Shown: positions 1,740 to 37,785, counted from the whole stretch's first letter. The stretch: DNA of 63,864 nt, filler included, from Lophium mytilinum (GCA_010093605.1; 8 parts of 5 records of this genome joined end to end with filler, not necessarily neighbours in it), one strand, 5' to 3'. Numbers and translations are program-made. The notes: generated by a model not told the origin, from the letters alone.

Positions 1740-2889
1740 TATAAAATAACCTTCTATCTCCTTCTAATTTTCTTTTCTTTTCTTACCCTTTACTCTACTA
1801 GTATTACTTAGCTACTTATTTAAGCTTATACTATTATCTATCTACTATTCTAAGCTAACGCTAGCTTACTCTTTTATACTTTAACTACCTATCTATCTAC
1901 TATCTACTACTACTTAAACTTCTATTCCTTTTACTTTTAAAGTAAGTAAGTTACTATAATAGATTTTTATTTATACTAACTAGTATATAGCTTTAAAATC
2001 TAAACTCTAAAAAAAACCTTTTAGCTAAGTTCTTTTTATAACGCTTTTATTCTATCTAACGTTCTACTTTTATTCTAACTCTAGTAACTCTTTTTTCTTA
2101 TCTAACTCTTTAGCTTAAACTCTCTATCTAGGTAATACCTCTTTTTTATCTAACTTTATAGGGTTTCTATAACGCTTCTATTCTATCTAACTATCTAGCT
2201 TTACTTTTTACCTTCTAACTCTATTTACTCTATCTATCTATCTAGCTACCTTCTTATACTTTAGTAATTTTTCTATAGTAAGTTATTTCTTTAGATTCTT
2301 TCTTATACTCTTTAGTATTAAGCTAATATATATTTAGAATAGCTAAACCTTTAAAATAGACGCATTACTATCTAATAGTAAGATTAATACTGCAGAAGTT
2401 ATAGACCTAGTCTATAATTTAGAATATAATCTAGAATATAAGATTATAATCTATAAAAGTTGTAATATAGTTCTAAATCCCTTAGCTAATATTAAAGAAC
2501 ATTTAAACCATAAGTATAATATTACTTCTTCTACTACTTCTAATATAGATAATCTATATAAAGACTTAAAAGACTTAGAAATTTCTAATAAAGAGGATAT
2601 TTCTATACCTTCTAATTATAGTATTTACTTTGCTAGCCTACCTATAGTAGAAGAATTTAAGTGTACTATTAAAAAGAATAGTAATTTACCTAAATGCGGC
2701 TTTTTTACTAGTAGTAAGAAAGTACTACATGTACACTTTAATAAAATATATAATCTTAATAATATCTATAAGAATATAGATTTTAATCTAATAGGAGAGT
2801 CTAATATATTAATGTAAACATTCTTTACTAATAATAGAAATATTAGATACTTTATTAGTAGTCTATCTAGACTAGTTGCTATAGATCAG
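1740..2889 (+). pseudogene. DUF3505/OrsD-like zinc-binding N-terminus of a telomere-linked RecQ helicase (TLH)-type gene, truncated
   Basis: Frame at ~2419-2860 reads LEYNLEYKIIIYKSCNIVL...KEHLNHKYN...FKCTIKKNSNLPKCGFFTSSKKVLHVHFNKIYN...LM*TFFTNNRNIRYFI. De-RIPed this matches the DUF3505 pattern (ICxxC...HLxxxH...C...C...H...H...QxFF...RYF). GTAAGT introns at ~1942 and ~2277. Start position uncertain. Confidence 0.7.
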
Positions 2890-2959
2890 CTATATTATAG
2901 AGGCTAGAGGGTTAGGGTTAGGTAGGGAGAAGCAAGTTTAACATAGAGAAAATCAACCT

Positions 2960-3915
2960 TTAAGAATTGCGTGCAGCATAACCTTGCACCGCCGCATTTA
3001 ACCACCACAACGTGAAATAGAGTATGCATGCAAAGAATAATACTTAGAACGCAATGCAATAGCGTTCTATTAACTTTGATTTAATTTACAAGCTGTGGTG
3101 GTGGCTTAAGGTAGGTATAGAGAGGCCGTAGGGTGCGCAGGCATAGAATGGAAATTACTTAAAGGGTTTAGCGTAAGAACAGCCTCGCGCTTAAGAATTA
3201 GTGCAACTACTACTGCATGCAACTACTATAACGTAGTATAGAAGAAATATATAAAGGATTATATATAATATGTAATACAATAGCAATCTATTAACTTAGA
3301 ATTAATATGCAGGCTATAGTAGTAGTAGCAGTTACATATAGAGGTAAGATTCTAAATAATAGAAGTTACTTAAAGAGTTTAGCGTAATGCTAGCCTTACA
3401 CTTAATAAAGACCTTAACCAGCGCTGCATGGAACCACTATAATATAAGGTTAAAGATATTTACAAGGAAAATTACTTATTATATAATGCAACAGCATTCT
3501 AGCAATTTAGAAATATTTTACAGGCTGTAGTTATAGCTCTAGGTGGGTGCAGAGGGTAGAAGGGTAAGGGAAGAGGGCAGCCAGCAGCGTAGAGTATAGC
3601 CCTATAATTAAGCAGCCTTTCTACCGCTGCATATAATAACTTCTAGATATTAAGATACTATAATAGAGCTATAATACTATATATAGTATACGTAATTAAA
3701 TTTAAAGCATTATAGAAAAGGCGAAGTCCTAGTAGTAGGTGCCTATAGAGGGTAATAGATATAATAGAAAGAGTTTTACGTTATAATAGCCTTGCCTTAG
3801 CACAGGTTGCTGCTAGATAGTATTCTTACGTAATAGAAATTTTAGCCGCATTAAATAAAATATATAAAGTAAAGGGCAGAATACAGTTTATATAATATTT
3901 ATAGATAAAGCAATT
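2960..3915 (+). repeat. Subterminal degenerate tandem repeats, ~200-220 bp period, 4-5 units
   Basis: Anchor CYGCAT at ~2994, 3215, 3426, 3629 and 3848; shared blocks CAATAGC..TCTATTAACTT, ACAGGCTGTRG and TTACTTAAAGRGTTTAGCGTAA, clearest in the first three units. Confidence 0.65.
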
Positions 3916-4141
3916 AACAGGGCTACCGCAGGAAGCCTTCCTGCTAGGGCCCTTCCCCAGCGACCTTAACCGAGTGGCCGTATCCGTAAGGGGTGTTAAA
4001 ACGGGTTAGGCGGGGTAAGCCCTATAATAAGAATGTTAATAACTCCTTGTTTTTAACTAATTACACTCCCTAACCGCTTTCTGCTCCTTAGCTCTATATT
4101 CTAAACTATTATCCCCCTTACTACTATACCTAGTAGTTAGC

Positions 4142-7100
4142 ATGGGACGCCCCCAAAAGTACTAGAATAAAGAAGAGCGAAAAGTAGCTAAATTACGTTT
4201 AATAGTGGATTTGAACCGACGCAAGAGAGATAAAAAGAAGAGGGCTGTAGACTAAACAGCTGCAGCAGGAGAGGCTAGTAAGCCTACTCCTACTTCTATT
4301 CTAGATCCGTTTCTAATTATCTTTAAAAACCCTAGAGGTCTTTCTAGTATAAATATTAGGGCCCCTTATCCTACCCGCCCTGCGCCCACGCCCTTTTAAC
4401 AACTAATTGCACCTTAGGAGCCTTTAGAGGAAACTATTGCACAACTTATAATTAGTATATCTTTTATAATCTTCTAGTATTTACGGTTAGGTTCTAATAA
4501 ACTTAAGTAGAACCCGTCTTAATAGAAGAATTATTACCTTCTACCTCTACTTAATCTACGCAATACACTCCTCCGCAGCGGTCTACCTATAGTAGTACCC
4601 GTTCTACTATTCCTTCTATATCTACCTAACCTATGTAACCTACGTAATATACTTCTCTATAGTAGTCTACCTATAGTAGTATCTATTCTACTACTTCTCC
4701 TCTATCTACTAAATCCACCTAATATTCTACTCTAGGGCGGGCTACTTATAGTAGTACTTATTCTCTCGCTCCTCTAACCTTTTAACCTACTTAACTAATA
4801 TAACTTTCTTATACCTAGCAGTCTACTAGCAGTAGTACACGCTCTAGTAAGTTAAGAGCGGCCTAATATATACCTGAAATTTAAAGCAATATAGAATTAA
4901 CGGAAGCTGTAGAGTAAGATTAGAGTAATAGTAGTAAGTATGCTATTATATAGACTATTAAGGGAGCAGCAGTTAAAGAAGAAGAAGAAGCGGCTAAAGA
5001 AAGCAAAGCAAATAAAGAAGTAGCCTAAGTAGATAAAGAAGTAGAAGAGGCAGTATTAGAGTTACTATTACCTGCATCTTCCGCGTTATCTTCTTATATA
5101 CCTGCGTTACCACCGCCTCTAGATGCTAGAGAGGTGTTGCCCTCTCTATTACTACCTTATAGCGTAGGGACACCTTAGTAAGCCGCAAATAATAATAATA
5201 GAGCTCCGGGCTAGGTTCTACCCGCTATATACTATCTCTATAAAGCGTTTCTTAAACCCGCAGCTATACTATATATATATACAGGCGTATATACTATCCT
5301 TGCCCTCTAGAATACTCTATAGACGGCTATAATACTACGCGCAAGTTTACGCGCTTAATAAACTATAGCGGCTTCTACTTCTGTACAACTAGAACTAATA
5401 ATACAATGCTAAATACTAGCCCTTATTACTGTATTACTACTCTACGTACTTGCGCAAATAACTAATAAAGAGATTATAGCGGAATTATTCTTAGCGCAAT
5501 AAAATAAGGCTGTAGAAGTGCTCTCTAGAATAGACGCTGCGGAATAAATAGATAAGGAGGAAATGCTAGCTAATATAAGTCGGTTTATGCAACTAGCGCA
5601 TAACAACGGTTGGGTTTAGATAGAGTGGTACGCTGCCTTATTATCTCTCCGCCTAACGCCAGTAACTGAGGTTGTAGAAGAGGAATTTACCTAATTTAAG
5701 AATAAGGTAGAAGCAGGTATAGATGTAGATAAGGTATTAGATAATAGAGTTAAAGAGGGTAGAGAAGGTATATATACGCAAGGACAGCAAGACACTATAG
5801 ATAAATTACCGGGTTTACTTAATAAAGTTACGCTGGAGAATTAAGGCAGTAGGGTAGATAATACAGCCTTAAATAGTAAAGGCAATAGCAAGATTATAGA
5901 TAAAGTTATAGATAAGATAGACTCTAATAGGTAAGTATTATAAGCTCTACAGTTTATATAAAGCTAATATACGTAGGCATAATAATCTATTAGTAAATAC
6001 TCCACATGCAGTAAGTATAATCTAATTAGTATTAGAAGTCCAGTGTACTTACTATATGTCTTAACTCTTTCTATTTAGATAATATAGTAGCTAATATTAT
6101 AATATAGTAAGTAACTATACAATAATTCCTTAGAGCAAATCTCTTAGCCAAGTTACTAGCTTTCTCCTAGCTTAGAACCTTCCCTTCTAACAAGAGCCTA
6201 TTACAGCTAATGCAGCCTTCTATTTAATAAGCTAACTAGAGCTATTATAGAGAGAGGATAATCCTAACAACTTTAATAATGTTTTATAGAAATTAATATT
6301 AAGCGGAGAAACTAGTAATATAGAAACTCTAAGGCTTAGTTTTATAAGGTCTAAAGCTAGCTTTATAGTAAATAAAGAGATTAAAATCTAGCAAGTATAT
6401 AACATTAATAGCGTTATTATCGGCATCTCTACTTTAGCGGCCTATAATTTATACTTCTTACTATCTCTACAACCGTTCTTTCTCTAAAGTATTACTTAAA
6501 ACTAATATATTATAATACGCGGCTATAAGCTCTATATAATAAAGTAGCTTTATATAGGGCACGGGTGTAAGCATTAATTTAAAACTTATGTGTTTTTCCC
6601 CTAGATGCCGACACTAAATAAGTAGAAGGGCGACACTTTGCATCTACTAGATACAATGCAAGCAGCTTAGCTTAATAATATTATCTTACCTGCAGTAAAG
6701 TATACTCTAATACCCGATAAGTAGCAGTATATACTATATAGTTTTAATATTATACGGGGTAAAGTAAGCGTTAAGAAAGAAAAATATATAATATTATCTA
6801 GAGACTCTTATATTAATACTAAGTATACAATTCTATAGTATTAACTCCGAGAATTCTGGGACCAAGTTCTTTACAACGCAGAAAACTTTGCAGGAACGGA
6901 TACTATACCCGAAGATTTATTTAAAGGAGTATTTCTAGTAGTCTTAGGTTATAATCTAAAAATAGTATATAAGTCCTTAAGTATAATTTAAAGCAGGGAT
7001 TAGCTACTATGTACTTTAACCACTACTTTTAATAAAAACCTAATTAATATACTAGATAAGGGGATATAGGTTAACTATAGATATAAAGATGTCCTAACTA

Positions 7101-9290
7101 CTAATTAGCTAGATACTGGGGTTACCCTTCTACGTAAAACTAGCTGCAATAACCACTAGGCCACTTACTTCTATAATAGCGAAAAAGAAAAGATTTATAT
7201 AACATTATACCCCTACTATCTTACCTAGGGCGCGTTATCTCTAATAGTAGAGCTCTAAGCAGGCAACTATAGCCGTATTAGTAGTATAGCATATAATAAA
7301 ATCTATAATAGTAATAAGATTATGCTTAAGTTACCTGTTAAGGATATTACGCCCTTTTGTAATACTTAACTAGAAGCTCTTGCATTCTTAACTAAAATAA
7401 TTAAGCGGTAGTTTAAAGTAGCAGGTGGCTCTAGAGGATTATTAAAAAGAAAACAGCTTTAGGATAGTCTTGCTGCTATTCTCTAACGCCACTATACTAT
7501 ACTCTGGAGAGACAGACACTTATTCTATAGGGTTTAAACCGAGTTCTAAGTACTTCTTACTATACTTAAGCAACTTAAAGAAAGCGCAAGTCCCGAATTT
7601 ACTATAAAGGATGGGCTGGATAATAGTAGCGAGCCTTATTACCCCTACTGGGTTCTTTCTATAGAAGAAGTTAATGCCTTTACTATTGCAAACCTTAATT
7701 GCTAGGTATTTCTTTTCTAGGTACTGTCTCTTTAGGTTACCCCCGGGCGTAATGCTAGGCATATAGTAACACTAGATAAATAGCTAGTAAATAGTTATTT
7801 AGCATCTCTTTATATCCGCCTTGCGTAAATTACTGCTGGATGTAGTAATCCCACTTAATTATCTATACTGTGGAAAAAAGAGTAGATAAATTAAAAAGAC
7901 CCCCGGAATCCTGTAACCTTATATAGCCTTAGGTTATTAGACTCCCTTAAGAAGTATAGCATAGCTTAGCTAAAGTTAGAGTACTTAGATTAGATAATAA
8001 TGCCCCTATAACTTAGCCCTTAAGGCGTTAATTAACTACAAGCCGGCCTTAGAAATTAATTCCAAGCTACGTTTACTAAAGCTCGGATCTAGGTATCTCT
8101 TACTAGGGAGGATATAGAGATGCAGTATCTATAGTATGGTATTATAGTATAGTACACGCTAGCTATTTAACGCAAAAATAGGACTAAAGTGTAAAAAGAT
8201 TGGCGATTAGCACCGCTATGGATAGGTAAGGCAGCTGCGCTTATTATTAAGGCATACTATACCGATATATACGAGCTTCTAAGTAGACAGTATATAGGAG
8301 AAGACGGAAATACTAAGACGCGACGGGAGAGTAAAGAACTACGCGACTAATTTCTTAAGAGTATTCTAAATAGATCTATAGTTGCGCTTTATCCTAATAT
8401 GCTTATAAAGCTATATAGAAAGTTAGAACTTATAGTAAGCTACGCCTACGTGCGGAATATAGCTAGAAATAGTAATATAAATTATCTAAGGCACTTAACT
8501 AGACGCTAGATTAATTAAGTCTGGCCGCTGTTTAATATTATAGATCTAGCTGCAGAAACTTAAAAATGGAACAACAGTTCCTTCTGCATAAAATTGCGAA
8601 GATTAAATGCAATAATTAGAAACGAAGCGTTACTAAAAACAGTAGAATAATTCCTTAATAATCTATAAGCAAGAGCTGCCTTATTACTCTAGGTTCTTCT
8701 AAGATATAATAATAATAAAATTTTAACCACGCGTTAAGCTAAATAAAACAACTCTAAAGATACATAAGATAATATTAGGGGAAGAGATGCAATTATAAAT
8801 ATATAGTAGATCTATATGCAACTACTAAATAGCTACTACTATAAGGTAGCCTAACTAAGCTAATATATTAAAGAACAGGCTTAAGGGGGGGTAGTTAACC
8901 TTAGCATGGACGTAGTTATAAAGGAAGTATAGAATATAACCTAGGGAAGCCTAGGAAAGTTAAAGATAATAACAATAGAGGATAATATTATAGGCCCTAG
9001 GGGTTAAGTTAATCTAAAACATGTCTAGCTTAGGTTTAAGCACTGTACACTAAATAGCCCAAGGGCTTATTTAGGCAGGATTCTAATAATTAAAGAATTC
9101 TGGAATTATTTAGTAATATAGAAGGAGCAAGAGGGGGATATAAGTAGTTAGTTATTAGATAAAGAGTATAAGTATAAAGAGAGTTTAGGTAACTATAGCT
9201 TAGAAATAGAGGACTTGGAGGACTCGGGGTAAGAGGCCTAGAAAAATAAGGCTTAAGTAGAAGAGTTCTAAGAAGCATATAGATTTAAGC
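4142..9290 (+). pseudogene. ORF1: large RIP-degraded multi-exon gene of unknown family (basic N-terminus, S/T/P-rich repeats, acidic region, globular core ~6170-8700)
   Basis: ATG at 4142 (MGRPQKY*NKEERKVAKLRL...); GTAAGT introns at ~5931-5976 and ~6107-6170. The long exon's stops are mostly RIP-type and de-RIP to YDIDS, YVFFP, QHVPHSF, GHDLK, PFCNTQLEALA and FYGVRTEF, with at least one frameshift. Confidence 0.65.
4555..4850 (+). repeat. Coding tandem repeat in ORF1 (~75-85 bp, ~4 units)
   Basis: Recurring CTACYTATAGTAGTAYY..TTCT at ~4583, 4667 and 4742, with a more degenerate unit at ~4823. Confidence 0.55.
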
Positions 9291-10374
9291 GTTAATAGGT
9301 AGACTGGCAGGGGCGGCGTTATAAAGAAGAATTATTAACGAGGAAGGTAGTAAAGTAATTAGTATAAGATGTAAAGGGCGTTAGTAGGAAGGCTTCTAGC
9401 TAGGCTCTTATATAGTACGCAAATGCTTATCTAGTAGGTGCGTAGCGGTGATATATATAAGAAGAGAGGTAATAATAGGCGTGCTTAATATAAGTAGTAA
9501 AGGGCCCTAGTAGAAAGGCTTTCTAGTAAGACCCTTATACTGTAGGCAAATAGTTATATAATAACGCGCGATGTTCTATTAACCTATCTTAGCGCAGTGC
9601 TATATTACTAGAACTAGGTAATACGTAGCGTAGTATTGTAGATTAACCGTAAATATTCGCATATTAGTAAAATTAAGTAAAACGCCGATATATTTATACC
9701 CGCGATATTTTAACCTTATATAATATATAGCCATTACGTTAACCTTAAGAGTTAACTTAAGTAGTTTACTATTAAAGGCTTAGCGTCTTAGCGGCCGGCG
9801 GCTATTAGCCCGGCCGCCTACAAACTTATCCGCCGCCTAGTAGCTTTAACTTTCTTACTTCTATACTAACCTCTCTTTCTATACTACTGTACCCCTATTA
9901 CTTCCACTTATCTAGCTACCTGCGGAACGGTTGCGCGCTAGACCCTTACTTGCTAGACGATAGTTAGCAGCTTTCTAGCTACGTTGGAGCCGTAATTGGC
10001 TAGTTTTAGGCGTCCTTTTAGCTAGCGGTTAAGCCTTTTAGTAAGTTTGCTGTCTAGTAGGTAAAATTAAGTTACGTTATAGCTAATTCTGCTAACAGGT
10101 TTATTCTATTGCAATTTCTCTAAGAGTGGAGTAAGGTAAGCGTATTATAAGGATTGTTGCAGGAAGGCTTCCTGCTAGGGCCCTTTGCTAGTCTTAGTAG
10201 ATTAGTCTGCCTTAATTTTAAAGATGCGGCGGCAGGAAATATTAAGAAAATAATAATACTAAAAATACCCGGTATAGTGCAAAGGGTCTTGGCAGGAAGC
10301 CTTTCTACTAGGGCCCTTTGCCTGCCTTCTTTCTTCTATTATTTAAGATAAGCTAACATATTAATAGGCTGGCC

Positions 10375-13300
10375 ATAAATACCTTAAGTAATGGGGACCC
10401 TAGTAAAGCAGTAGTAAAGGTTGCATCCCTGCGCATATTACCTGTAACCGACCTAGTAGATAGCTATAAGAAATAATCTACTTCTTCTAAAGTGCTAGAA
10501 GATTTAAATTCTACCTCCCTACTAGTTACTAAATTGGGGGTTGATGCCTATAGCGATTTAAAGCGCAATTAGCCGGCCACTGTAATAGATCTGGAGACGC
10601 TTATATTAGTAAATAGCAAAGTGGTTTATCTAGATAGTAATAACTATAGTAATAACTCTAATGTCCCTAAGAACTCTAATAAAGAGCAGGAGAAGCTTTA
10701 AGCGCTAGTTACTGGCACTAGAAAAGATAAAGAGTTAGAGAAGTTGTGGGCCTTAGTAAACACGCTGTATGCTAGTAGAATAAAGTTGGCTAAGCTTTAT
10801 AGTTAAATAAAAGTAGAACTTAAAGCAATTCTAGCTAAGCCTAATTTCTAAGCAATTTAGAACAAGTATAAGGATAGGTATTTAGACCTAAAGCGCGCCG
10901 TGCATAGTTAGAATTAAGGGGCTAGTTTTGCTACTGTCCTAAACGCTTTTAAGACTGGCGAGTTGTATAATCTGCAGTAATATACTACTTCTTAGCCTAA
11001 GACGGATAACTATAAACCCGTGGATTAGGCAGCTTAATTTATTAGTTAATGCTTTAATTACTACTGGAAGCGGTTTAGTGGGTTTTTGTATAACCGCGCT
11101 AATATTACTAATAACGAAGCGCTTAGAATCTTCTTTAAATTAAAGAAAAATATAGAATTTAAGAGTGGCCCGTCTTAAGCTAGCAGGACTGCCTATACTA
11201 AGAACTAAATTAAGATACAGGACGTTCTTTAAAAAATAAAGCTTAGTCTAGCACCGGCACCTAAGACCCCGGCTAAAACTATTACTTATAGCAGGAAGGA
11301 TGTTAATAGGAAGCCTTCCCGTTAAGGCCCTTCTAGGCCTCCCTATTAGCAGTCGCCCTCTTGTTTTACTAAGGAGGAACTCGCGGCCATTAATATAGAG
11401 GTTAACGCAGACAACCCTATCTAGGGGTTATCTAAAGAGGAAATTGCTGCAAACCTAGTTAATAAGGAGAAAGGCAACGTTAATGTTACTAGTACTAAGT
11501 ACATCACCGGCACTATAAAATAGAAGCTTAAGTTAGTAATTGCGCATGCTAAGCGCACTGGAGTAATAATTAACCGGAACTCGTTAAAGTTTCAATACAA
11601 CGCATATCGGGTAATTAGATAGATGGCAGGAGATTTTATATATACCGTTAAATAGCACCTAAACATGCGCGCTGCAGATCTTAATAAGGACAAGTATGCT
11701 AATCTAGACGGTATTAAATATGCCTAAGACATAGAGGCTAATATAAGGGCTACCGCTATTAATATAAAGGATATTATCCCCTTTACTATATTAACCGCGG
11801 CAGATCTTATAACGCAGAGTGCACTCCGCCTTCTAATAACTAATAAAGCCTATTAGCTAGATAACCTAAAAGAAGCAATAAAGGCCCTACGCATTTATAA
11901 CTATCAGGAACCCCGCCTTATTATAATAAATGGTAATATTTACTTAAGGTAGTAGCAGATTACCGGAGCTTACTATATATACTGTATTATATAGAAAGGC
12001 TTTCTTAGTGGGGCCTTAATTATAGATAAGGTTAGTATTAGGAAGACATTTTTAATAGCTACCCTTATTAGACATATAAGTAATTTCTCTTTAAAGAGTA
12101 TTAATAGGAAGCCTTCCTACTATCCCCCTAATAGTTTCTCTTAGCATCTACTAATTTAATTATAGCTTATTACTAAGCGCCAGCGCAAAGTTGCGGATAA
12201 GAAAGACCCCGGGCCGGCGAAGCCCTTTCTTTTTCTTGTGCCTCCCGTTTTAGTACACTAAATAGTAAATAAACTTACAAAGTTTAGTTCTAAACTTAAG
12301 CTCTATATCTATTTATTAAAGGGCTAAGTTGCTTTCTATAGCGCTACGTTTCTATACAACACCTTAACTAGGGACTATCCCTTATTTAATACTAAAAACA
12401 AGGCCAATGCTAAGAGCATTATAATCGCTAGCTATTGGGTAATAGCTAGTCGGCACGGTCCCCAGCCCGCATTAAAGTGGTATAGCGATAATAATCTTAC
12501 TAAGCTAAAGAATTGGGTTAAATATTGCCTAAGCTCTACCTGGCCCGGTCTCTTAAGTGGCTATTTCAACGTCTAATTTATAGATAAGTGCTAGCTTATT
12601 AAAAGCGACTAAGTAAACCTCCACCTAACCGCCTTATAGCTTTACTTAGACTTTACTGTACTCTATAGTGGGACCCCGCTATATATAGGCATTACTAATA
12701 TACCTGCTTACATGTCTTTTATAGAACTGAGAGATAAGTATCTATAATTCCGCACGTACCGCTTAACACCCGGTAAAGCTAAGTTTGTTCCGGGTACCGA
12801 TAATCTATTTAAGCTTCCCGACAACTATTTAGGTATAATTTTCTGGTATACACGCAAGGCTTTTAAAAATTTTATTCTGCCTTTATTTAACCCGTAAGTT
12901 ATTATATAAAGGGCCCTAGCAGGAAGGCTTCCGGCCAGGGCCCTTATCTCTTTTCTTATTTACTTTAATTTTCTAATATTTCTCCAGGATTACACAGGGG
13001 CTTTATTTACGCTTAATTTTTAGTAAGTATATAATTGCTCGCTTATACCCTTCTACATGCCCGAATAATTCCACTAATCCTGCCACCCAAATTAGAGGAT
13101 TACTTCTGTAGTTAGTTACGCGAGTAATTAAGCTACAGCCTATAAAACTAGGCTATATTATCTATGCTAATAAATCACCAGCCTACCTTAAGTTATTAAT
13201 GGTTTCTACTAAGAACCGCGTAGGCCAGCGCACCTATGCATTTAACGCATGCTCCGTGCATGCTCTTAACCTTATAAGCACTGCGCCATTTTTAGTCTAC

Positions 13301-15748
13301 TTTAAGCGCGCCATAATAGCATATCCGCAAAAGAAGGTCTTAGATTTAGAGGGTAATAAGATTAAGGATGGCCCGAAAATTATCCCTCTTAAGAATAATG
13401 GCGGTTACTGGTTAAAGGAAATTAACGTTTTGCGAGGCATAATAAAGTAAATTGCCCGGAATAAGGACGTCTAAACTAACCCTAATTAGAAAGACTTTAA
13501 AGTAAAGTCCACATTCTTTTATTACGTTGTTGCCCTTTTTATCCGCGATGCCCCTAAAGTGGCTGCACTACTATACTGTTTGGCTGACGACGTTATTAAG
13601 CGTATGGAGAAGGTTATTATCTAGACTAACTACCTAGATAAGTAAATAATTCTTACTAAGATTATTAACTATTATAAAATGGATGCTTATATATTAGCCT
13701 CTAATCTCTCTACTACTGACCGGGATAACCTTATCTTGGTGTTTAACAACCCCAACTCTAAAGTAAAGATTCTTATTACTAGTTACTAGGCTAATAGAGC
13801 TAGGCTTAATCTATAGTCTACTTACTATAATATATATCTTTTTAACCCTGCAGGCTCTATTTAGATTAAGGAGTAGGCGATAGCGCGTTTCTATAGGATT
13901 GGCCAGAAGTTTACTATTATGGTAACCGCGTTCTTTATCTAGAATATATTTAATGCCTTTACTCTCTCGCGCTAGGTATAGATAGCGCTTCCCGGTCTTA
14001 CTGCTACGTTAAACACTAACTAGATTAAGGTAGAGGGGACCTCTAAGGAAAAGCTAACCCTAGATAGCTAGTATGCGTAGGTAACCTATAATAATAAGAG
14101 CATCGCACCCCGCCTTATTATAGGCGAAATAGATATTTTAAATATGCCAGTAGAATTACACGTTAAGCGCTTTAACTCCCTATAAGACATTCTTGTATTT
14201 CTAATAACTCTTACGCAAGGCAATATAACTTTTTAGTCTAGTGGGTTTAGTAATAAGTTCTAAGAAGAACAAGCGTACGAATTTACTGAATCGGAATTAG
14301 AAGAAGAGTAGGAGAAGGGTGCGAGTAGAGCGCCTAAGAAACCGCGTGTTAATAAGCTAGGTTTAAGACTTAAGCGTTATCCTGCAAGCAGTAAGTTCGC
14401 CCTTATAGATTCTAGCGGGAAGGCTTCCTGCTAGGGCCCTACTTGCCTCTTTATACTTTGCTAATCCGTGTTTTATAGTAAAAGCTACCCTAAAGCCGAA
14501 GCTAAAGACGCTAGAGTAATAAAATAGTAAAGCTTTAAAGTAGAAGCGCAAAGCTAGTGCTGCACTAGCGGCTGCCGTTAAAAAGCGTAAGCCTAACCCT
14601 AAGTCTGCTGTTATGGTTAAAGACTCTAATTCTGCTAAATCTAATATGCCCACCCCTATAAAGAGCACTACTAGAAATACTTATAGCCCTTTTGTCTGTT
14701 AATATAGGCTGGAGCGTAACCCTTTACGTTAAGTACCCGCTATTTTTAGTAATATAAACGGCGACAACCCTTTTAGTAGGCTAAATAGTAATAACTCTAA
14801 AGGCGAAGAGTATAAGAATAATACTTTATTTCTTGCAAAGTATATAGGTAAGAATTTATTCTAGGGCCTTTTTAGGAAGCCTTCCTGCTAGGGCCCTTTA
14901 GTATTGCCTATTATATTACTTAAGTGCTAACTATTATAGTAGCTCCTACTTCCGCCCGTTAACCTACTTTAACTCTACCTTCTGGCCCTCTTAGTACCTT
15001 TAATAGACGCCTTGTTAGGACCCCTTCTATAGACCCCGTCCCGTCGCCTAATACATAGAAGAAGAGGCAGCGCGGAATGTCTACTATCTTCTTATAGGAT
15101 TCTATAGATAATCTAGTTTTTTATTTACTACTAAAAGCTAATATTAATATAAATAATAAGTAGAATAAGGAGAATATTAAAACCCCTAACGTTAATATAG
15201 AGAACGTCCCGTTTAAGACTAATAAGTAAAACGGGGGGTATCTTAATAATTACCTGGATTTTACTACTACGCTATCTAAAGTTGCCTTTAAGCGTAATAG
15301 CAACTACAGTAGTAACTTAGACGACCCGCCGGAATTTATAGAAGGGGCCTTGCAGCCAACCCTAAAGACTATGTCCTCTAGTAATACTAATAAGGGTTAA
15401 AAGCGCTAAGGCGTAAAAAAGAAGCCCACTGTAAAGAAGGATAAAGCAGCTAAGAAAGACCCTATATTTAAATCCCTTATGTATTGTCCGTATAAGTATA
15501 TAATAGAGGAAGAGATTACTAAGTAGCGCCCTTAGCGTAAAAGGAAGGCTGCTAAGAAGAAAGCTGCTGTGTAGAAGTCTATAAACTCTACTAGACTAAA
15601 AATAGACCTATGCAGGCGGAAGAATAATTCTAATGTTGGCTGACTGCCCGTAGTATTAGGTGCAGATACTAACCCTAATAGTAAAGAGGATAGCAGTAAA
15701 TTAGAGGGGACTAGCATAGCACTAGAGAAGTCTAATAGCGAGGTATAA
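10375..15748 (+). pseudogene. SNF2-family (SF2) ATPase/helicase gene, RIP-inactivated
   Basis: Ordered motifs: Q motif LR**QITGA (~11944); motif I GALIIDKVSIRKT = GALIADEVGIGKT (12010-12048); motif II FIDKC*LIKS = FVDECQLIKS (~12577); motif III LYSGTP (12661); IV EKVII*TNY (~13607); V ILITSY*ANRARLNL* = ...GAGLNLQ (~13769); VI E*AIARFYRIGQK (~13871). Introns at ~12076-12165, 12894-12987, 14391-14478 and 14848-14939, plus upstream introns 10041-10098 and 10136-10367. Confidence 0.92.
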
Positions 15749-16119
15749 CTAGTAGAGTCTTTATAGGAAGGCTTTCTATAGGGGCCCTTACTCTACTTTT
15801 TAGATTTAGTTTAGCATCTCTTAATGTTTTTTTCTTTTTCTTTCTAACGGTTCTAATTAGGACTACTTTCCTTGCTATTAGTTTATACCTACTTACTTAG
15901 TGCTACTAACTTTTTACTATTCTAATTTCTTGCTTGCGTTCTATCCTCTACCCCCTAATAGTTAGCACTACTCTATAGTAGTAGTACACTTTATGCCCTT
16001 AAAATCTCCTAGTTTATATTTAGCCTCTAGATAGCGGCTTACTTAACTATAGAATATAGCGTAATATTTACTACTATAACTGTGCCTTATGTATCTTATG
16101 CGTAATATAATATTTATTT

Positions 16120-17400
16120 TATTTATCTATGTTGTAGGGGGCGGTCTTATCCGCCGTAGTTTATATAGTCGGGGAGGGTAATTGCATTCTAATGCCGCTC
16201 TATTATATCTATACTATTAGTATATGCTCCCTATCTTTTTTATAGTAAAGAATCTACTATTATATACCCTGTAATTTAACCCTCTTTACTAATATTAGTT
16301 ATACGGCTGGGCTGAGTCCTCTCTATAGACTCTATCTATTAACACGCTGTATGCGACTTTATTCTACCTATAGTTTTCTAAAGCGTGTATTATTGCATAA
16401 TACCTAAACTAACCGGAAGGAGAGTTATTTATACGTGTTGTTGTTAAGTTTTTAGCGTACTAGGCGGCGGAAGGTAATTTAGGTGTCGTAGTTGTACTTT
16501 CTAGTTTATCGGCGATGTATTTGGACCTGCTTATTATTAGCAAGGATAGTAATTCTTAAGGGGTTACAGTCTTACCGTTTATTACTTTTAATATAACTTT
16601 CCTCCTCCTTGCAGTTATAAATAGTCTCTATATTATAAATAGAACTGCTCTTTTATTCTAGTATTTTTCTTTACTTCTATTCTTATAGCCGTCTTAATAA
16701 GCGCTTTAGCCGTGTAAGCTTTCTTCTTACAACTAAATCTAGGGTAGTATTTACAACCTTGCGCCTAGACAGGGTATTAGGCGTAGTAAGGGGAGAAGCT
16801 AACCGCTCTATTAGGATATATGTATTAGGCAGACGTAGATATATCTGCCCCTGCTAAATATTATCCTCGGCGTTTAGAGTTGCTGTGCTGCTGCGCGTTA
16901 ACCTTAGTGTACCGGGCTGTATTTTATATACTTTAGCCTGGTTTAGAGTTGCAGCCGTCTCTACGTTAGGTTAGGCCGCTTCTTATCTCGCAAATATCCG
17001 CCGGAACGCTCTAGAAAGGACGTATATAGTATACTAATTAAGACTTACGTATAGTATTGTGCGTGGGCTGCTACTATACTATAAGGGGTAGGTAGTAGTT
17101 AGAAAAAGGTTTAATGCGCTAGTTTCTATTAATCTTAGCATATTACGTGCTAACTACTTGTATTATACCTACACTTATAATTAACCTTTAGAGGTTAACT
17201 CTATATACTATATATAAATAGCAGCACTAAGAGTTTTATTTTATTACTATACTATACGTATATTTTACCTTAGGCGGGACTAGTAGGTCCCTATAATGTA
17301 TAGTTTATATAACTATACTCTACGTTGCTTTAGCGCCCGCCCAATTTACTTTTCCTCTCTTTTCTTACTCCTTTAGCTTATTCCTCTCTATACTATAGCT
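16120..17400 (-). pseudogene. Unidentified RIP-degraded gene with introns
   Basis: Long near-open minus frame (ETAATLNQAKVYKIQPGTLRL...RRKLTRLKRLLRR); minus-strand introns GTAAGA...GCTAAT...CAG (~16527-16575) and GTAGGT...GCTAAG...TAG (~17126-17172). Confidence 0.45.
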
Positions 17401-17578
17401 GCAGGCAAACTAATAGCTAGAACTAGCACGGGAGAGACTCTTAATTGTATTTAAAGTACTTTAGAGAGATAGATTAATAGTATATAAAGTTTTAAAGCCG
17501 GCAGGCCGTGGGAATACCTATGCAACTAACTTGGGAGAGCAGCACGCTAAGAACAGCACCGCCACAATAGGTATACTA

Positions 17579-18207
17579 ATGGGCTCGGGTACTATTACTT
17601 AGAACCCTCTTCTTAACCCTAATACACCTAGTAATACCGCGGATCTTGCTGCATAAAACGCTAGAGAGGAGTCCTTATTATTTATTTCTAAAATAACTCC
17701 TAAGCTAGCTAATATAGACTAACTCTACACGACTAAACCGCTTACTGTAGAGGATACTGCCGACCCTACCTGCATCCGTGCCTAGAGAGAAGCACTTCTT
17801 GCAACTATCTAGAATTAAAACGGAGGTTCCCTCTTTAGTAATAGCCTAGGCACGTCCACTAATACTGCTCTTAATATGCAGCCTACTATAACTAAGTCTT
17901 AAACTCTCTATAACTATGCTAACCCCCTATCTTAAGCTACTAGAGATAGCGCCCCACCTTCTAAGTCTAATATTAATATTAAGCCTAAACTAGCTAACAA
18001 AGTTAATGTAAAGATTAAGCCTAGTATTAAGATTAAGCCCGGCCTTATAAGCAGCCTGGATACTACAAGTTTTTTAAGAATAATTCTAAGGATAAGGAGC
18101 TTCTGCGCTTGCGGATTAATATAGAAGAGAAGGAGGCAAGGGCTATATAAATAAGATTTAAGGCTATAGCTAGAGAGCGGAAGCGGCAGGGCCTAATCCA
18201 CTTCTAA
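17579..18207 (+). pseudogene. Unidentified RIP-degraded ORF with IKxE-like repeats and a charged helical C-terminus
   Basis: MGSGTIT... then IKPK/VKIKPS/IKIKPG repeats and KELLRLRINIEEKEARAI*IRFKAIARERKRQG, with a possible frameshift between them. Confidence 0.35.
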
Positions 18208-18237
18208 ATCTAAACCTTAGACGGGAGTAGTAGCGCC

Positions 18238-18386
18238 CTAATCTATTCCTATCTCTACGCGCTTATTAGTAAATACCCAACTCTTTATCCAGCGCTGCCA
18301 GGCTCTTACTATCCCCCAACCTATCTTCTCCTTTAATAGCAACGCGTCCCTGCCCTTCTAGAACTGCACCCTAGCCCTCTACGCCG
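18238..18386 (+). repeat. 149-bp direct duplication of the start of the dsRBD gene
   Basis: Colinear with 19331-19479 (…CGCTTATTAGTAAAYACCCARCTCTTTATCYAGCGCTGCCAGGC…CTCTACGCCG); differences are mostly transitions. Confidence 0.9.
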
Positions 18387-18624
18387 TCTACGTGGAAATT
18401 ATCTAATAGGCTTTACTCTTTTACTTTACCTTACTCTTATTTCCTTCTTTAATAGCTTTATCTCTACTCTTCTACTATTAGTCTTATCTTCTTCCACTAT
18501 AGCGGAGCCTCTAGATCTAACCCCTAGTAATAGTACTAGTTTACCCTTTACTACTATAGCGAAACCCGAAGATTTATCTTCTATTACTACTACTACCGCG
18601 TTGCTAACTCGCGAGCCCTAAAAT

Positions 18625-18757
18625 TGCGGATATTGCAGAAAGGAAGCTACTCTAAGGTGCAGTTGCTACGCCAGCGTTATCTACTGCAATGCGGATTATT
18701 AAAAGGCCAACTGGAAATTATCTAATGCGCCGCCTTCTTGCATAAAGGTTGTTGCAC
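18625..18757 (+). pseudogene. MYND-type zinc finger relic
   Basis: CGYCRKEATLRCSCYASVIYCNADY*KANWK, then HKGCC in a shifted frame. De-RIPed this is CxxC-x7-CxxC-x5-C-x3-CQKADWK...HKxxC, the MYND signature. Confidence 0.8.
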
Positions 18758-19330
18758 TATAATAAGACTCCTATGCTTTAGCTTAAATTTACTAATAGAC
18801 AGCGAAGAGCGTAAAGTTTAGCGGATTATCTAAGGGGTAGAAATTAAAACGGGCTCTAGCTCTATTATGCGACTATAAGCTGTAATATACTTTACCTCTT
18901 ATAAACTTAGCCCGCTACGCATAAATATAGAGTCTCTCCTGCCTAAGCGCTAAAGAATAACTTCTAGTAGAGCAGCTGCAGCTACCCTAGCTTGTGCAGA
19001 TTAAACTAGCACCCCACCTTAGCCTTCTTAGGCTAGCCTTTAACCTTATATATACACTAGCGTAGGCAGTAATAATTATTCTTATCCTTTCTTTATACTA
19101 AGCTTAATTACTACGCCGCTTCCTAGCTTTAAGAAGAAAAGAAAGATAGAGGTTGCAACTCCTCTTAGTAGTTAAAACTCTACCTACGCCCCGCCGTTAA
19201 TTAATTAGATACGTAGAGGCTCTATTCTAGGTGCCCTAAGTGTGCTATAAAACCTTTTTAGTATTAATAAGTTTAAGAAGCAGTATAAAGCCGCCGTTGC
19301 CGCTGCTAGAGCCTAAGCCTAATCTACTCT

Positions 19331-20301
19331 CTAACCTATCTCTATCTCTATACGCTTATTAGTAAACACCCAGCTCTTTATCTAGCGCTGCCAGGCCCTT
19401 GCCATCCCCTAACCTATCTTCTTATTTAACGGCGACGCCTTTCTACTCTTCTAGAACTGCACTCTAACCCTCTACGCCGCCGGCTCCCCCCACTTTCTTA
19501 CTACTACTAGCCTCTTTACCTCTAAGAAAGAAGCTAAAGAAGCCGCCTCTACCTTTAGCCTTGCCCTTCTCTCCTCTCTTAAAGCCTCGGGCATAGTCTC
19601 TACCCCTAGCAAAACTAAAAAATATACTCTAACTCTAACTCCTACTACTACTACCCCTGAGGAACCCTAGGAAAACTTTACTAGTATTTTTATAGAATTC
19701 TGCTAAGCCTCTAAAATCCCCGTTCTAACCTTTACTAAGTTTAAAACCGGCACCTGCTTCTCCGCCGAGCTATTACTGGCCTCGCACCGCCTGGAGAACG
19801 CCCCCTTTAGCGGCTGCGCTATGCTCTACCCGTTAAAGAAAGCGGCTTATGCGGCTATAGTAAGGGAGGCGGTGCTCTAGCTGCGCGTAGAAATAGCTGC
19901 CCGCTATATATAAGCCCGCGTCCGTAAAGAAGTAGTAGAAGACGGTAGGGGGTTCTAAGAACGCCGCGGTGCAGCTACCGGGTAGTGTAGCAGCGCGGGT
20001 GCTGGCGCTGGCGAGCGAGCTAGGGCTACCGCAGCCGGAGTATTAGTAGGCGGCGCTAAGTGCGCTAGCGCCGGGGCTATCTATAGTAAGTAGTTTGTTC
20101 CCGGGGAGTAGAGTAGGCGGGGAGGATAGGGTAGTAGTAATAGTAAGGCATGTAGTTAGAAAGAAGGCGGCGAGGGAGAAGTATGCGCGGTTAATAGGAA
20201 TGGAGTTAGAAGGAGTATTAGAGAGGAGGAAGGGGGTGTTAGAAAAGGTGTTAGAGAAGGGAAAGAGGGAGGTAGAGATAAGAGAGGAGGATAAGAACTA
20301 G
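19331..20301 (+). pseudogene. Double-stranded RNA-binding-domain (dsrm) protein relic, 2-3 dsRBD-like repeats
   Basis: Domain 1 QLFI*RCQALAIP*PIF...FTSKKEAKEAASTFSLALL; domain 2 ENFTSIFIEFC*ASKIPVLTF...CFSAEL...YPLKKAAYAAIVREAVL*L; third partial VRHVVRKKAAREKYARL (= ORF-track 20095-20301). KKxA(K)xxAA helices are typical of dsRBDs. Confidence 0.75.
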
Positions 20302-20419
20302 TATTCTTATTAGAAGTATAGAGAGACATATAATAGGAACTTATTTATACTTACTTAATTTAGGTTATAGTAGGGGAAGCATATTAGAAGTATAGTAAGT
20401 AGGAAGTATAATTACTTCC

Positions 20420-20535
20420 GTTAGGGTTAGGGTTAGGGTTTTAGGGTTAGGGTTAGGGTTAGGGTTAGGGTTAGGGTTAGGGTTAGGGTTAGGGTTAGGG
20501 TTAGGGTTAGGGTTAGGGTTAGGGTTAGGGTTAGG
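20420..20535 (+). repeat. Telomeric (TTAGGG)n tract at contig end
   Basis: ~19 TTAGGG units with one extra TT at 20439-20440, G-rich strand pointing to the contig end, free of RIP-type changes. Confidence 0.95.
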
Positions 20536-20635
20536 NNNNNNNNNNNNNNNNNNNNNNNNNNNNNNNNNNNNNNNNNNNNTTAATTAATTAANNNNNNNNN
20601 NNNNNNNNNNNNNNNNNNNNNNNNNNNNNNNNNNN
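20536..20635. other. Artificial contig linker (N-run TTAATTAATTAA N-run); also at 29709, 35118, 37686, 39127, 60735 and 62631
   Basis: Identical 100-nt spacer with a six-frame stop cassette, present seven times. Confidence 0.97.
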
Positions 20636-34622: not shown

Positions 34623-35117
34623 CTTTCTTCTTAGTAGCCTTTTTTTTATACTAAGAGTACTACTTAGTAATCTCTTTCTCTATTATATACTTATATAGAT
34701 AATATATAAGAAATTTAAATATAGGGTCTTTCTTAGCTGCTTTATTCTTCTTTATAGTAGGCTTCTTTTTTACACCTTAGCGCTTTTAACTCTTATTAGT
34801 ATTACTAGAAGATATAGTTTTTAAGGTTAGCTATAAGGCCCCTTCTATAAATTCTAGCGGGTTATTTAAGTTACTACTATAGTTGCTATTACACTTAAAG
34901 GTAACTTTAGATAGCATAGTAGTAAAATCTAGGTAATTATTAAGATACCCCCTATTTTACTTATTAGTCTTAGACGGGATATTCTCTATATTAATATTAG
35001 GGGTTTTAATATTCTTCTTATTCTACTTATTACTCTTAGTCTAGTTATTATCTATATTAATGTTAGCTTTTAGTAGTAAATAAAAAACTAGATTATCTAT
35101 AGAATTCTATAAAAAGA
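34623..35117 (-). mobile_element. Inverted copy of SNF2-element segment ~15085-15563
   Basis: Reverse complement aligns to the SNF2 gene 3' region with extra RIP transitions and an ~18-bp indel. Confidence 0.9.
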
Positions 35118-35217
35118 NNNNNNNNNNNNNNNNNNNNNNNNNNNNNNNNNNNNNNNNNNNNTTAATTAATTAANNNNNNNNNNNNNNNNNNNNNNNNNNN
35201 NNNNNNNNNNNNNNNNN

Positions 35218-37685
35218 GAAAGGCTTTCTACTAAGACCCTTTATACTATGCTAGGTATTTTTAGTATTATTATTTTCTTAATATTTTCTGCTACTATATC
35301 TTTAAAATTAAGGTAGACTAATCTACTAAGACTAGTAAAGGGCCCTAGTAGAAAGCCTTTCTATAATAATTCTTATAATACGCTTACCTTACTTTACTCT
35401 TAGAGAAATTATAATAGAATAAACCTATTAGTAGAATTAGCTATAATATAACTTAATTTTACCTACTAGATAGTAAACTTACTAAAAGGCTTAACCGCTA
35501 GCTAAAAAGATACCTAAAATAAGCTAATTGCGGCTCCAATATAGCTAGAAAGCTACTAACTATTATCTAGTAAGTAAGAAACTAGCGCGCAACTATTCCG
35601 CAGGTAGCTAGATAAGTAGAAGTAATAGGGGTATAGTAGTATAGAAGGAAAGATTAGTATAAAAGTAAGAAAGTTAAAGCTACTAGGCAGTAGATAAGTT
35701 TATAGGTAGCCGGGCTAATAGCCGCCGGCCGCTAAAACGCTAAGCCTTTAATAGTAAACTACTTAAGTTAACTCTTAAGGTTAATATAATAGCTATATAT
35801 TATATAAGGTTAAAATATTACAGGTATAAATATATTAGCGTTTTGCTTAATTTTACTAATATATAAATATTTACGGTTAATCTATAATACTATGCTATAT
35901 ATTACCTAGTTCTAGTAATATAGCACTATACTAAGATAGGTTAATAGAATATTATATATTATTATATAACTATTTACCTATAGTATAAGGGTCTTGCTAG
36001 AAAGCCTTTCTACTAGGGCCCTTTACTACTTATATTAAGCACGCCTATTATTACCTCTCTTTTTATATATATTACTACTATATATCTACTAAATAAGTAT
36101 TTATATACTATATAAGAGCCTAGCTAGAAGCCTTTCTACTAATACTCTTTATATCTTATACTAATTACTTTACTATCTTTTTTATTAATAATTCTTCTTT
36201 ATAACGCCGCCCCTACTAGTCTACCTATTAACGCTTAAATCTATATACTCTTTTAGAACTCTTCTACTTAAGCCTTATTCTTCTAGGCCTCTTACCCTAA
36301 GTTTTCTAAGTCCTCTATTTCTAAGCTATAGTTATCTAAACTCTCTTTATACTTATACTCTTTATCTAATAACTAACTATTTATATCCTCCTCTTACTCC
36401 TTCTATATTACTAAATAATTCTAGAATTCTTTAATTATTAGAATCCTGCCTAAATAAGCCCTTAGGCTATTTAGTATATAGTACTTAAACCTAAGCTAGA
36501 TATATTTTAAATTAACTTAACCCCTAGGGCCTATAATATTATCCTCTATTATTATTATCTTTAACTTTTCTAGGCTTCCCTAGGTTATATTCTATACTTC
36601 CTTTATAACTATATCTATGCTAAGGTTAACTACCCCCTCTTAAGCCTATTCTTTAATATATTAGCTTAGTTAGGCTATCTTATAGTAGTAGCTATTTAGT
36701 AGTTATATATAGATCTACTATATATTTATAATTATATTTCTTTCTCTAATATTATCTTATATATCTTTAGAGTTATTTTATTTAGCTTAATATATAGTTA
36801 AAATTTTATTATTATTATATCTTAGAAGAACCTAGAGTAATAAGGCGGCTCTTGCTTATAGATTATTAAGGAATTATTCTACTATTTTTAGTAACGCTTT
36901 ATTTCTAATTATTATATTTAATCTTTATAATTTTATACGGAAGGAACTGTTATTCTATTTTTAAGTTTCTGCAGCTAGATCTATAATATTAAACAGCAGC
37001 TAGACTTAATTAATCTAGCGTCTAGTTAAGTGCGTTAGATAATTTATATTACTATTTCTAGCTATATTCCATATATAGGCGTAGCTTACTATAAGTTTTA
37101 ACTTTCTATATAGCCTTATAAGTATATTAAAATAAAGTATAACTATAGATCTATATAGAATACTCTTAAAAAATTAGTTATATAGTTCTTTACTCTTCTA
37201 TTATATCTTAGTATTTCTATCTTCTTCTATATACTATCTACTTAGAAGCTTATATATATTAGTATAGTATGCCTTAATAATAAGTATAGCTACCTTACCT
37301 ATCTATAGCGGTGCTAATTACTAATCTTTTTACACTCTAGTCCTATTTTTATATTAAATAGCTAGCGTGTACTATACTATAATGCTATACTATAGATACT
37401 ATATCTCTATATTCTTCTTAGTAAGAGATATCTAGATCTAAGCTTTAGTAAATATAGCTTAGAATTAATTTCTAAGGCCGGCTTATAGTTAATTAACGCC
37501 TTAAGGGCTAAGTTATAGGGGCGTTATTATCTAATCTAAGTACTCTAACTTTAGCTAAGCTATACTATACTTCTTAAGGGAGTTTAATAACCTAAGGCTA
37601 TATAAGGTTATAGAATTCTAGAGGTCTTTTTAATTTATCTACTCTTTTTTCTATAGTATAAATAATTAAGTAGAATTACTATATC
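35218..37685 (-). mobile_element. Inverted copy of SNF2-element segment ~7839-10305
   Basis: Colinear reverse complement of the ORF1 3' part, the intergenic region and palindrome copies (~35218, 35338, 35987, 36114). Confidence 0.92.
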
Positions 37686-37785
37686 NNNNNNNNNNNNNNN
37701 NNNNNNNNNNNNNNNNNNNNNNNNNNNNNTTAATTAATTAANNNNNNNNNNNNNNNNNNNNNNNNNNNNNNNNNNNNNNNNNNNN

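Follow-up and report, generated by a model that had tools for sequence, protein, structure and literature searches.

A RIP-inactivated repeat block with an SNF2-family ATPase gene at a chromosome end of Lophium mytilinum

What kind of element occupies the last 17.5 kb of a Lophium mytilinum chromosome (assembly GCA_010093605.1), where a block at 2889-20419, damaged throughout by repeat-induced point mutation (RIP), carries the remains of an SNF2-family ATPase gene and runs directly into a telomere? An earlier reading made from the sequence alone (the sequence-only reading) had taken this block for an undescribed, giant mobile element, a member of a large DNA transposon family that brings its own SNF2 ATPase. 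What it had observed proved largely real, and the object appears to be a chromosome-end repeat that bears an SNF2 gene and was killed by RIP. The explanation that we favor, with middling confidence, is that 2889-20419 is a subtelomeric repeat block resembling yeast Y' elements and the telomere-linked helicase (TLH) regions of other fungi, in which an SNF2 ATPase replaces the RecQ helicase, and which has been spread by recombination. All results were derived from the window, that is the entire stretch of 63,864 nucleotides that was analyzed, from protein databases and from published papers. As read from its runs of N, the window consists of eight contigs placed end to end and joined by spacers of the form N44-TTAATTAATTAA-N44: contig 1 (1-20535), contig 2 (20636-29708), contig 3 (29809-35117), contig 4 (35218-37685), contig 5 (37786-39126), contig 6 (39227-60734), contig 7 (60835-62630) and contig 8 (62731-63864). 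Positions on either side of a spacer (20536-20635 and six more places) are hence not neighbors in the genome.

Contig 1, which bears the block, closes with (TTAGGG)x19 at 20420-20535 on the + strand, immediately before the spacer, and the 3' end of the G-rich strand points outward. This terminus is a true chromosome end, in agreement with the location originally proposed, and the block is therefore the terminal subtelomere, the last 17.5 kb of the chromosome. The entire window is AT-rich and RIPed, and a scan of 1-22000 recovered no open reading frame (ORF) of at least 150 aa and nothing intact. At about 2889 the GC content steps from 0.23 to 0.40, accompanied by a step in the RIP index, computed as (CpA+TpG)/(ApC+GpT), which is 0-0.17 to the left of 2500, indicating saturated RIP, and 0.23-0.87 from 3001 up to the telomere. 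The sharp left end noted earlier is thus real. No second step follows, and as the index remains uniform from 3001 to the telomere the terminal 17.5 kb shares a single RIP history, differing from that of the older flank.

The SNF2 ATPase named in the sequence-only reading was recovered as a pseudogene on the + strand, extending from about 10375 to at least 15740, using Pfam, HMMER, tblastn and three-base periodicity. Because of RIP its Pfam matches lie below cut-off (SNF2-rel_dom with E 0.0035 and 16.9 bits against a cut-off of 24.9, stops being read as X; Helicase_C with a sub-threshold E of 0.015). HMMER searches against 1.84 billion representative proteins yielded 117 matches at E<=0.001, including 19 at <=1e-10 and one at <=1e-30, with matches to SNF2 fragments reaching 3.5e-29. 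tblastn of 15 of these proteins located the conserved parts at 10726-12930 (frame +1) and 13526-14062 (frame +2), such that the SNF2 N lobe (~11686-12930) is followed by the helicase C lobe (~13526-14062), which are the two lobes, and the order, that typify the family. Three-base periodicity is strong in all exons of the gene, its RNY maximum coincides with the frame indicated by homology, and the tail of the gene is K-rich. Homology and periodicity together indicate that a real SNF2 ATPase gene, since killed by RIP, lies on this strand. Its N-terminal 570 residues belong to no known family and match just three of the 1.84 billion representatives, namely P0001 (6.5e-40), P0004 and P0049. These come from metagenome or run assemblies, lack any Pfam domain and end just past ATPase motif I, where a conserved intron probably begins. 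At the other end, the three proteins start level with an ATA at 10375, which is probably a RIPed start codon, and these matches point to intact relatives of the N-terminal domain elsewhere. The named relatives are distant (an Aspergillus "rad5,16"-like protein at 1.1e-17, and proteins of Emmonsiellopsis and Bacidia), and a search of PDB sequences with P0007 likewise gave generic, distant SNF2 proteins (best an archaeal Snf2/Rad54 helicase at 9.7e-15, then Rad5), so that these relatives would not suffice to assign a subfamily. In the ESM Atlas P0001 retrieved only clusters of SNF2 fragments at 0.93, which is below the usual level of recognition and serves as a lead only. A word search with the C-terminal part found no relative among proteins of similar length, a range outside which full-length proteins fall, P0001 had no match among longer proteins, and no relative's locus could be confirmed when metagenomes were scanned using alignment A1 and P0004.

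Fungal telomere-linked helicases begin with a domain of the OrsD/DUF3505 type, which is typical of chromosome ends. A zinc-finger remnant of this type lies in the flank, just outside the block, at 2347-2817 on the + strand (PF12013, E 9.9e-10, 39.3 bits against a cut-off of 26.6), and its reading frame continues up to the left junction. The available parts of reports on Fusarium and Colletotrichum place OrsD/DUF3505 in subtelomeric helicase proteins of these fungi (10.1101/721753, 10.1101/2023.02.05.527183, PMC5576322). In the case of contig 1, no helicase part follows the OrsD region, neither at the junction nor past 15564, the + frames across 15001-20420 being free of Pfam matches. The gene is therefore truncated and not split by an insertion. 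The six frames of 1-2348 gave no other Pfam match; the longest open frame of the flank, at 332-757 on the - strand (141 aa), has none either.

The left junction itself maps to 2889-2894 (+), where GCTATA here corresponds to ACTATA at 5794-5799. As these six bases are common to both partners of a junction in contig 5 (below), the left end lies somewhere within them. Between this end and a telomere-like tract at 2909-2927, GGGTTAGGGTTAGGTAGGG, lie 14-20 nt. The tract is oriented like the terminal telomere and occurs in contig 5 too, in RIPed form; the sequence-only reading did not mention it. In the window a telomere 12-mer with at most one mismatch occurs 22 times, as against 1.01 expected. Beyond this tract, self-comparison by blastn in a purine/pyrimidine (R/Y) alphabet and a lag scan revealed two degenerate tandem repeats on the + strand, one at 2987-3555 with a period of ~211-221 nt (2987-3344 against 3208-3555 at 85%) and one at 4531-4846 with a period of ~84 nt. 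The proximal border, upstream of the SNF2 gene, thus combines a telomere-like motif with tandem repeats, as is expected of subtelomeric repeats.

Other copies were sought by the same R/Y blastn, which is blind to transitions, and matches between copies were used only at >=96%; a more sensitive two-letter search of the window (word 16) returned only noise at 73-85%. Three stretches on the - strand were recovered in this way. The end of contig 3 (34622-35117) corresponds to 15087-15564 of the unit and adjoins an unrelated RIPed repeat, whereas all of contig 4 (35218-37685) corresponds to 7839-10305. Contig 5 (37786-39126), in the orientation of the unit, runs from 4863 to 5799 (39126-38190) and then directly into 2889-3298 (38195-37786, 100% R/Y identity over 410 nt), forming a head-to-tail junction. 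The left end hence recurs with flanks unrelated to each other, being joined to the OrsD gene in contig 1 and to position 5799 of the unit in contig 5. The more heavily RIPed copies previously placed at 34623-39126 do exist, but they are not one copy, being made up of the end of contig 3 and contigs 4 and 5. Differences from contig 1 are dominated by transitions in all of them: 245 against 4 transversions over 2467 aligned positions of contig 4, with T/A in contig 4 at 233/245; 126 against 2 and 62 against none in the two halves of contig 5, with T/A in contig 5 at 122/126 and 61/62; and 50 against none in the contig 3 piece, with T/A in contig 3 at 47/50. Contigs 3-5 therefore carry further copies with heavier RIP, and the unit is multicopy and RIPed, as was claimed. 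Contig 4 is ~90% saturated at CpA sites, and its extra mutations are split about evenly between CpA (86) and CpG (97), with fewer at CpC/CpT; RIP here, as judged from contig 1 against contigs 3-5, is not restricted to CpA. In a de-RIP consensus of contigs 1 and 4 all 43 stops of frame +2 remain. A duplication postdating the death of the genes by RIP was considered on this account and is suggestive only, as contig 4 is near saturation at CpA and independent RIP explains most of the pattern. tblastn of the read-through proteins uncovered no further, older copy in the other 43 kb of the window, and the SNF2 part has no second copy there.

The shortness of contig 5 (1341 bp), and the fact that the small contigs all end at repeats, raise the prospect that the recurrent left end reflects a chimeric assembly. 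We consider this very unlikely, given that both halves of contig 5 are equally heavily RIPed, that their differences from contig 1 are nearly all transitions and in one direction (122/126 and 61/62), and that the overlap of the halves, at 6 nt, is too short for a k-mer assembler to have been misled. The copies also bear on an ordinary segmental duplication, under which one or two rounds of duplication copied two host genes that happened to lie close to a chromosome end, and RIP followed, with no dedicated role at the end and no mobility. Only two to three partial copies are visible, features of mobility are lacking, and the differences being nearly all RIP transitions (245 against 4 transversions in 2467 nt) indicates a recent, simple event. 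Nevertheless, a random duplication would not be expected to yield a border tract, tandem repeats and a head-to-tail junction at that same border, and an SNF2 N-terminal domain with three relatives among 1.84 billion proteins fits a repeat-borne gene better than a conserved host gene, making such a duplication improbable.

The right limit is less well delineated than the left end. A limit at 15564, which corresponds to the minimum of 12.7 kb given in the sequence-only reading, does not hold because it cuts the SNF2 coding sequence: 14940-15740 is strongly periodic (p 3e-10), showing that coding sequence runs across this position, and a palindrome lies beyond it at 15753. The copy in contig 3, which joins 15564 to another RIPed repeat, is accordingly truncated and does not mark an end of an element. 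The sequence of contig 3 past 15564 also differs from that of contig 1 past this point. Two further arrangements were examined and rejected. A tandem array, in which this sequence would be the start of a new unit, scored 85 against a shuffle mean of 77, with 45/200 shuffles scoring as high; and a nested insertion, in which it would continue the unit from 5800 onward, was not significant, so that contigs 5 and 3 form no such insertion. If contigs 3-5 are consecutive, they would comprise the other repeat, a unit B running from 15564 back to 2889 and a unit A running from 5799 back to 4863. The two units would then be arranged head to tail, and the proximal one would lack its distal side.

The most substantial alternative is a giant DNA transposon that abuts the telomere or is truncated by it and belongs either to the Intons or Entons, on which little has been published, or to a new family, with the first coding region (ORF1) a RIP-obscured transposase and the six bases shared at the contig 5 junction its target. 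A left end at 2889-2894 recurring with two different flanks, a unit that is both multicopy and RIPed, and a large unclassified coding region in tandem with SNF2 are all consistent with it. Moreover, the available portions of PMC3627910 and PMC3520738 report Intons (IS3EU-derived) and Entons (En/Spm-derived) as fungal DNA transposons with an SNF2 helicase, which renders the claim of an undescribed element doubtful. Further, what is available of PMC12730594 gives fungal IS3EU elements a 6-bp target-site duplication (TSD) and TAYGG..CCRTA ends, and EnSpm elements a 3-bp TSD and CAC..GTG ends, and the six bases shared at the junction would match the former in length. However, the left end begins neither with CAC... 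nor exactly with TAYGG..., and no terminal inverted repeat (TIR) was found, the inverted matches to the left end amounting to no more than a 17-nt motif common to unrelated RIPed repeats of the window. The right end is undefined, since 15564 interrupts the SNF2 gene and the sequence following it in contig 3 is not the continuation of 5800 as expected of a nested insertion. Aligning the copies, as had been advised for defining the ends and any TSD, confined the left end to 2889-2894 but provided no right end and no TSD, the six shared bases being the sole hint of one. Thus the TIRs and TSDs of Intons and Entons have no counterpart here, where the left end is not repeated in inverted form and a right end is lacking. 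Like these elements, going by their published descriptions alone, the block is a large fungal DNA element with an SNF2 helicase besides other proteins, but we see two to three genes rather than their five to six, and no transposase.

The domain scan points in the same direction. A six-frame Pfam search of 2889-20420, complete except in + frame 2 over 9371-10402 and on the - strand over 20213-20420, found no reverse transcriptase (RT), DDE, rve, DUF3435, HUH Rep or Pif1 match, in line with the sequence-only reading, although RIP reduces the sensitivity of such a scan and a blank result is not proof of absence. Accordingly, neither the DUF3435 tyrosine-recombinase captain of Starships nor the HUH Rep and Pif1-type helicase of Helitrons is seen, and there is no RT on either strand as would be expected of telomere-targeted retroelements (MoTeR, Penelope-like), whose RT reads towards the centromere while the genes of the block read towards the telomere. 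On the transposon hypothesis the telomere-like tract and its orientation would be a coincidence. Taken together, nothing in these results demonstrates transposition, and we regard a large DNA transposon as possible but doubtful.

The subtelomeric repeat block that we favor accommodates most of these features at once. The block runs into a real telomere and its two long coding regions read towards it; the border bears a telomere tract and tandem repeats next to a truncated OrsD gene, and contig 5 preserves a head-to-tail arrangement; RIP is uniform up to the telomere, and neither a transposase, RT, tyrosine recombinase or Rep (in the Pfam scan) nor a TIR was found. A close parallel comes from the TLH ends of M. 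oryzae (PMC1635262). There the helicase gene is preceded by helicase-associated repeats in tandem, which contain GGGTTAGGG motifs and an imperfect palindrome of 23 bp and set the boundary with unique sequence, in a layout that the authors liken to yeast X/Y'. In our block, too, telomere-like motifs, tandem repeats and an imperfect palindrome precede the helicase gene and mark the proximal border, and it shares with the ends in that description head-to-tail arrays and truncated ends. As in the TLH regions of M. oryzae, F. oxysporum, U. maydis and S. pombe and in yeast Y' elements, which it recalls in layout, it is multicopy, lies next to the telomere and contains a long helicase-superfamily gene reading towards the chromosome end. 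TLH proteins, as far as the consulted part of 10.1101/2024.02.27.582403 describes them, combine C2H2 motifs, the TLH domain and a RecQ helicase in one protein, whereas the motor here is neither RecQ nor Y'-Help1 but an SNF2-family ATPase with an unassigned N-terminal domain; the C2H2/OrsD domain belongs to the truncated flank gene, outside the block; and, unlike in TLH or Y', a second large coding region precedes the helicase and the copy is dead through RIP. Hence, the block is best viewed, from its domain content, as an analog and not a member of the TLH protein family.

Comparable layouts have been reported elsewhere. In the text available for C. higginsianum (PMC5576322) all subtelomeres carry 11.3-18.5-kb repeats with TTAGGG motifs, a helicase and DUF3505, which REPET classes as transposable elements, and the accessible text on Fusarium (10.1101/721753, 10.1101/2023.02.05.527183) describes 7-19-kb multicopy subtelomeric blocks with a helicase gene, and others with a MYND-finger gene and a 1255-1830-aa hypothetical protein. 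The Lophium block resembles C. higginsianum DHX_G198, DTX-chim_G199 and DHX-chim_G203, and the Fusarium "host-specific subtelomeres", all of which lie at chromosome ends in a single orientation, in size (7-19 kb), in its place at a chromosome end, in TTAGGG motifs and a helicase gene, and in belonging to a kind of block that transposable-element pipelines class as transposable elements; its MYND-finger remnant and large coding region recall some of the Fusarium blocks. In those sources, though, the helicases are of the DEAD/Helicase_C type with OrsD and not SNF2, and the likeness is one of layout only.

Mechanistically, we propose that a chromosome end broken within the OrsD gene gained the block when another end was copied onto it in a recombination-dependent manner, probably through break-induced replication that started at the 6-nt microhomology or else within or next to the telomere-like tract, and that the head-to-tail junction of contig 5 arose from the same copying process. 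The block would then have been inactivated by RIP during sexual cycles because it was present more than once. An intact SNF2 protein would presumably act on chromatin or recombination intermediates at chromosome ends, by analogy with what has been proposed for Y'-Help1 and TLH. Several points weigh against this proposal. Its helicase is SNF2, unlike that of RecQ-based blocks, and we found no description in the literature of an SNF2-based subtelomeric block; a recurrent, discrete left end is a trait of mobile elements, and one of the two left-end junctions must be a secondary microhomology event if the block is subtelomeric; the contigs with the other copies are small and without a telomere, so that placement at ends is seen for contig 1 alone; the 14-20 nt that separate the telomere-like tract from the left end are of non-telomeric sequence and unaccounted for; and ORF1, to which no function is assigned, could be an unrecognized transposase. 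A bolder version, which we rate as a long shot, is that of a chromosome-end element working at the DNA level, in which the block attaches itself to eroded ends through a constant left end bearing telomere repeats, the joining having been seen twice (to the OrsD gene and to a unit eroded to 5799) and ORF1 and SNF2 providing its own copying machinery. If this were true, it would represent a helicase-driven counterpart of the telomeric retrotransposons that does without reverse transcription, midway between a Y' repeat and a transposon.

Helicase blocks beside telomeres recur in fungi, are poorly understood and have so far been described with RecQ- or DEAD-type helicases. An SNF2-based block whose ATPase has an unassigned N-terminal domain would broaden the picture of fungal chromosome ends, and would point to a "DNA motor at a chromosome end" as the trait under selection, rather than RecQ chemistry as such. 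The case also illustrates how subtelomeric blocks come to be called transposons, and bears on the unsettled border between repeats and mobile elements. In this genome the block is a fossil, with every reading frame destroyed by RIP; its value thus lies in being a pointer to intact relatives, of which the three fragmentary ones come from metagenome or run assemblies.

The palindromes of the block furnish a separate lead. A 37-nt palindrome is present in 10 copies in contig 1 (starting at 3918, 9374, 9500, 10149, 10282, 11296, 12909, 14405, 14862 and 15753) and in 2 copies in contig 4, as against 0 in 20 shuffles; the last copy (15753-15789, +) is the one past the limit of similarity to contig 3. 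Folded, the 37-nt hairpin has a minimum free energy of -9 to -24 kcal/mol, and it alone is conserved among the copies, the flanks being divergent. Four of the 10 lie 13-18 nt downstream of a GTAAG (binomial P 7.5e-4), and in 3 of those 4 a CTAAY follows 20-29 nt downstream. Three hairpin introns are predicted within the SNF2 gene, all on the + strand, at 12894-12987, 14391-14478 and 14848-14939, and their lengths reproduce exactly the observed frame path of +1, +2, +3, +2. A further intron probably lies at ~12080-12165, after motif I, and carries a degenerate palindrome core. The palindromes at 10149 and 10282 lie in the SNF2 leader, upstream of the start, while that at 11296-11332 is in frame and not preceded by a splice site, in a linker of the N-terminal domain where conservation is poor. 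Hence, what had been described as the block's own dispersed palindrome is indeed repeated, but the array appears to be largely a hairpin borne by SNF2 introns and the leader. By analogy, these palindromes look like a hairpin-bearing intron family that recalls introner-like elements, which are multicopy introns with stable predicted structure. With these and with symmetrical "sister" introns, as covered in the consulted portions of PMC3609843 and PMC8469720, they share a strong hairpin repeated in several introns of one gene. They differ from introner-like elements in that only the 37-nt palindrome, not the whole intron, is conserved and that some copies lie outside introns, and their motif differs from that of Hypoxylon. 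These hairpins are thus a small, separate lead on the spread of intron families.

The coding region preceding SNF2, earlier taken to encode a large unclassified protein, is a candidate only. Its first part, at 4861-5940, is coding-like and RIPed, with a periodicity of 84 chi2/kb (p 3e-17) that favors + frame +1 without proving the strand (20 stops in frame +1 and 17 in frame -2, of 360 codons). A second part at 6602-9370, a heavily RIPed candidate for + frame +2 by periodicity and stop counts, is moderately periodic at 6602-7800 (p 2e-4) but only weakly so at 7801-9370 (p 0.04), and its stops, out of 923 codons, number 67 in frame +2, 73 in -2 and 79 in -1, so that the frame is not separated from antisense. 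The earlier view is hence supported by the periodicity at 4861-5940 and 6602-7800, but only weakly by that at 7801-9370, and ORF1 as a protein is unproven. It has no relative in a word-index protein search or in Pfam, with E 0.22 noise in NCBIfam and E 0.43 among PDB sequences. The spacer between ORF1 and SNF2 (9374-10318, +) holds four palindromes (9374, 9500, 10149 and 10282), lacks periodicity, and repeats its segment 9435-9536 at 10219-10318.

Searches of contig 1 for Rfam families at E<=0.1 and for tRNAs gave no match. In the distal part of the block a weak zf-MYND zinc-finger remnant occurs at 18625-18720 on the + strand (Pfam E 0.016, 15.7 bits, below the cut-off of 22.7), and a direct repeat of 153 nt links 18236-18388 with 19329-19481 at 98.7% R/Y identity. 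Outside contig 1, translation by eye of the start of contig 2 (20636-20800) gives a candidate for the RT motif of a RIPed Gypsy-type retrotransposon. Contig 6 contains a second interstitial telomere tract at 55459-55500, comprising ~7 repeats partly RIPed to TTAGAG and situated in a repeat family common to contigs 6 and 3, so that remains of former chromosome ends, or of repeats associated with telomeres, lie within other sequence too.

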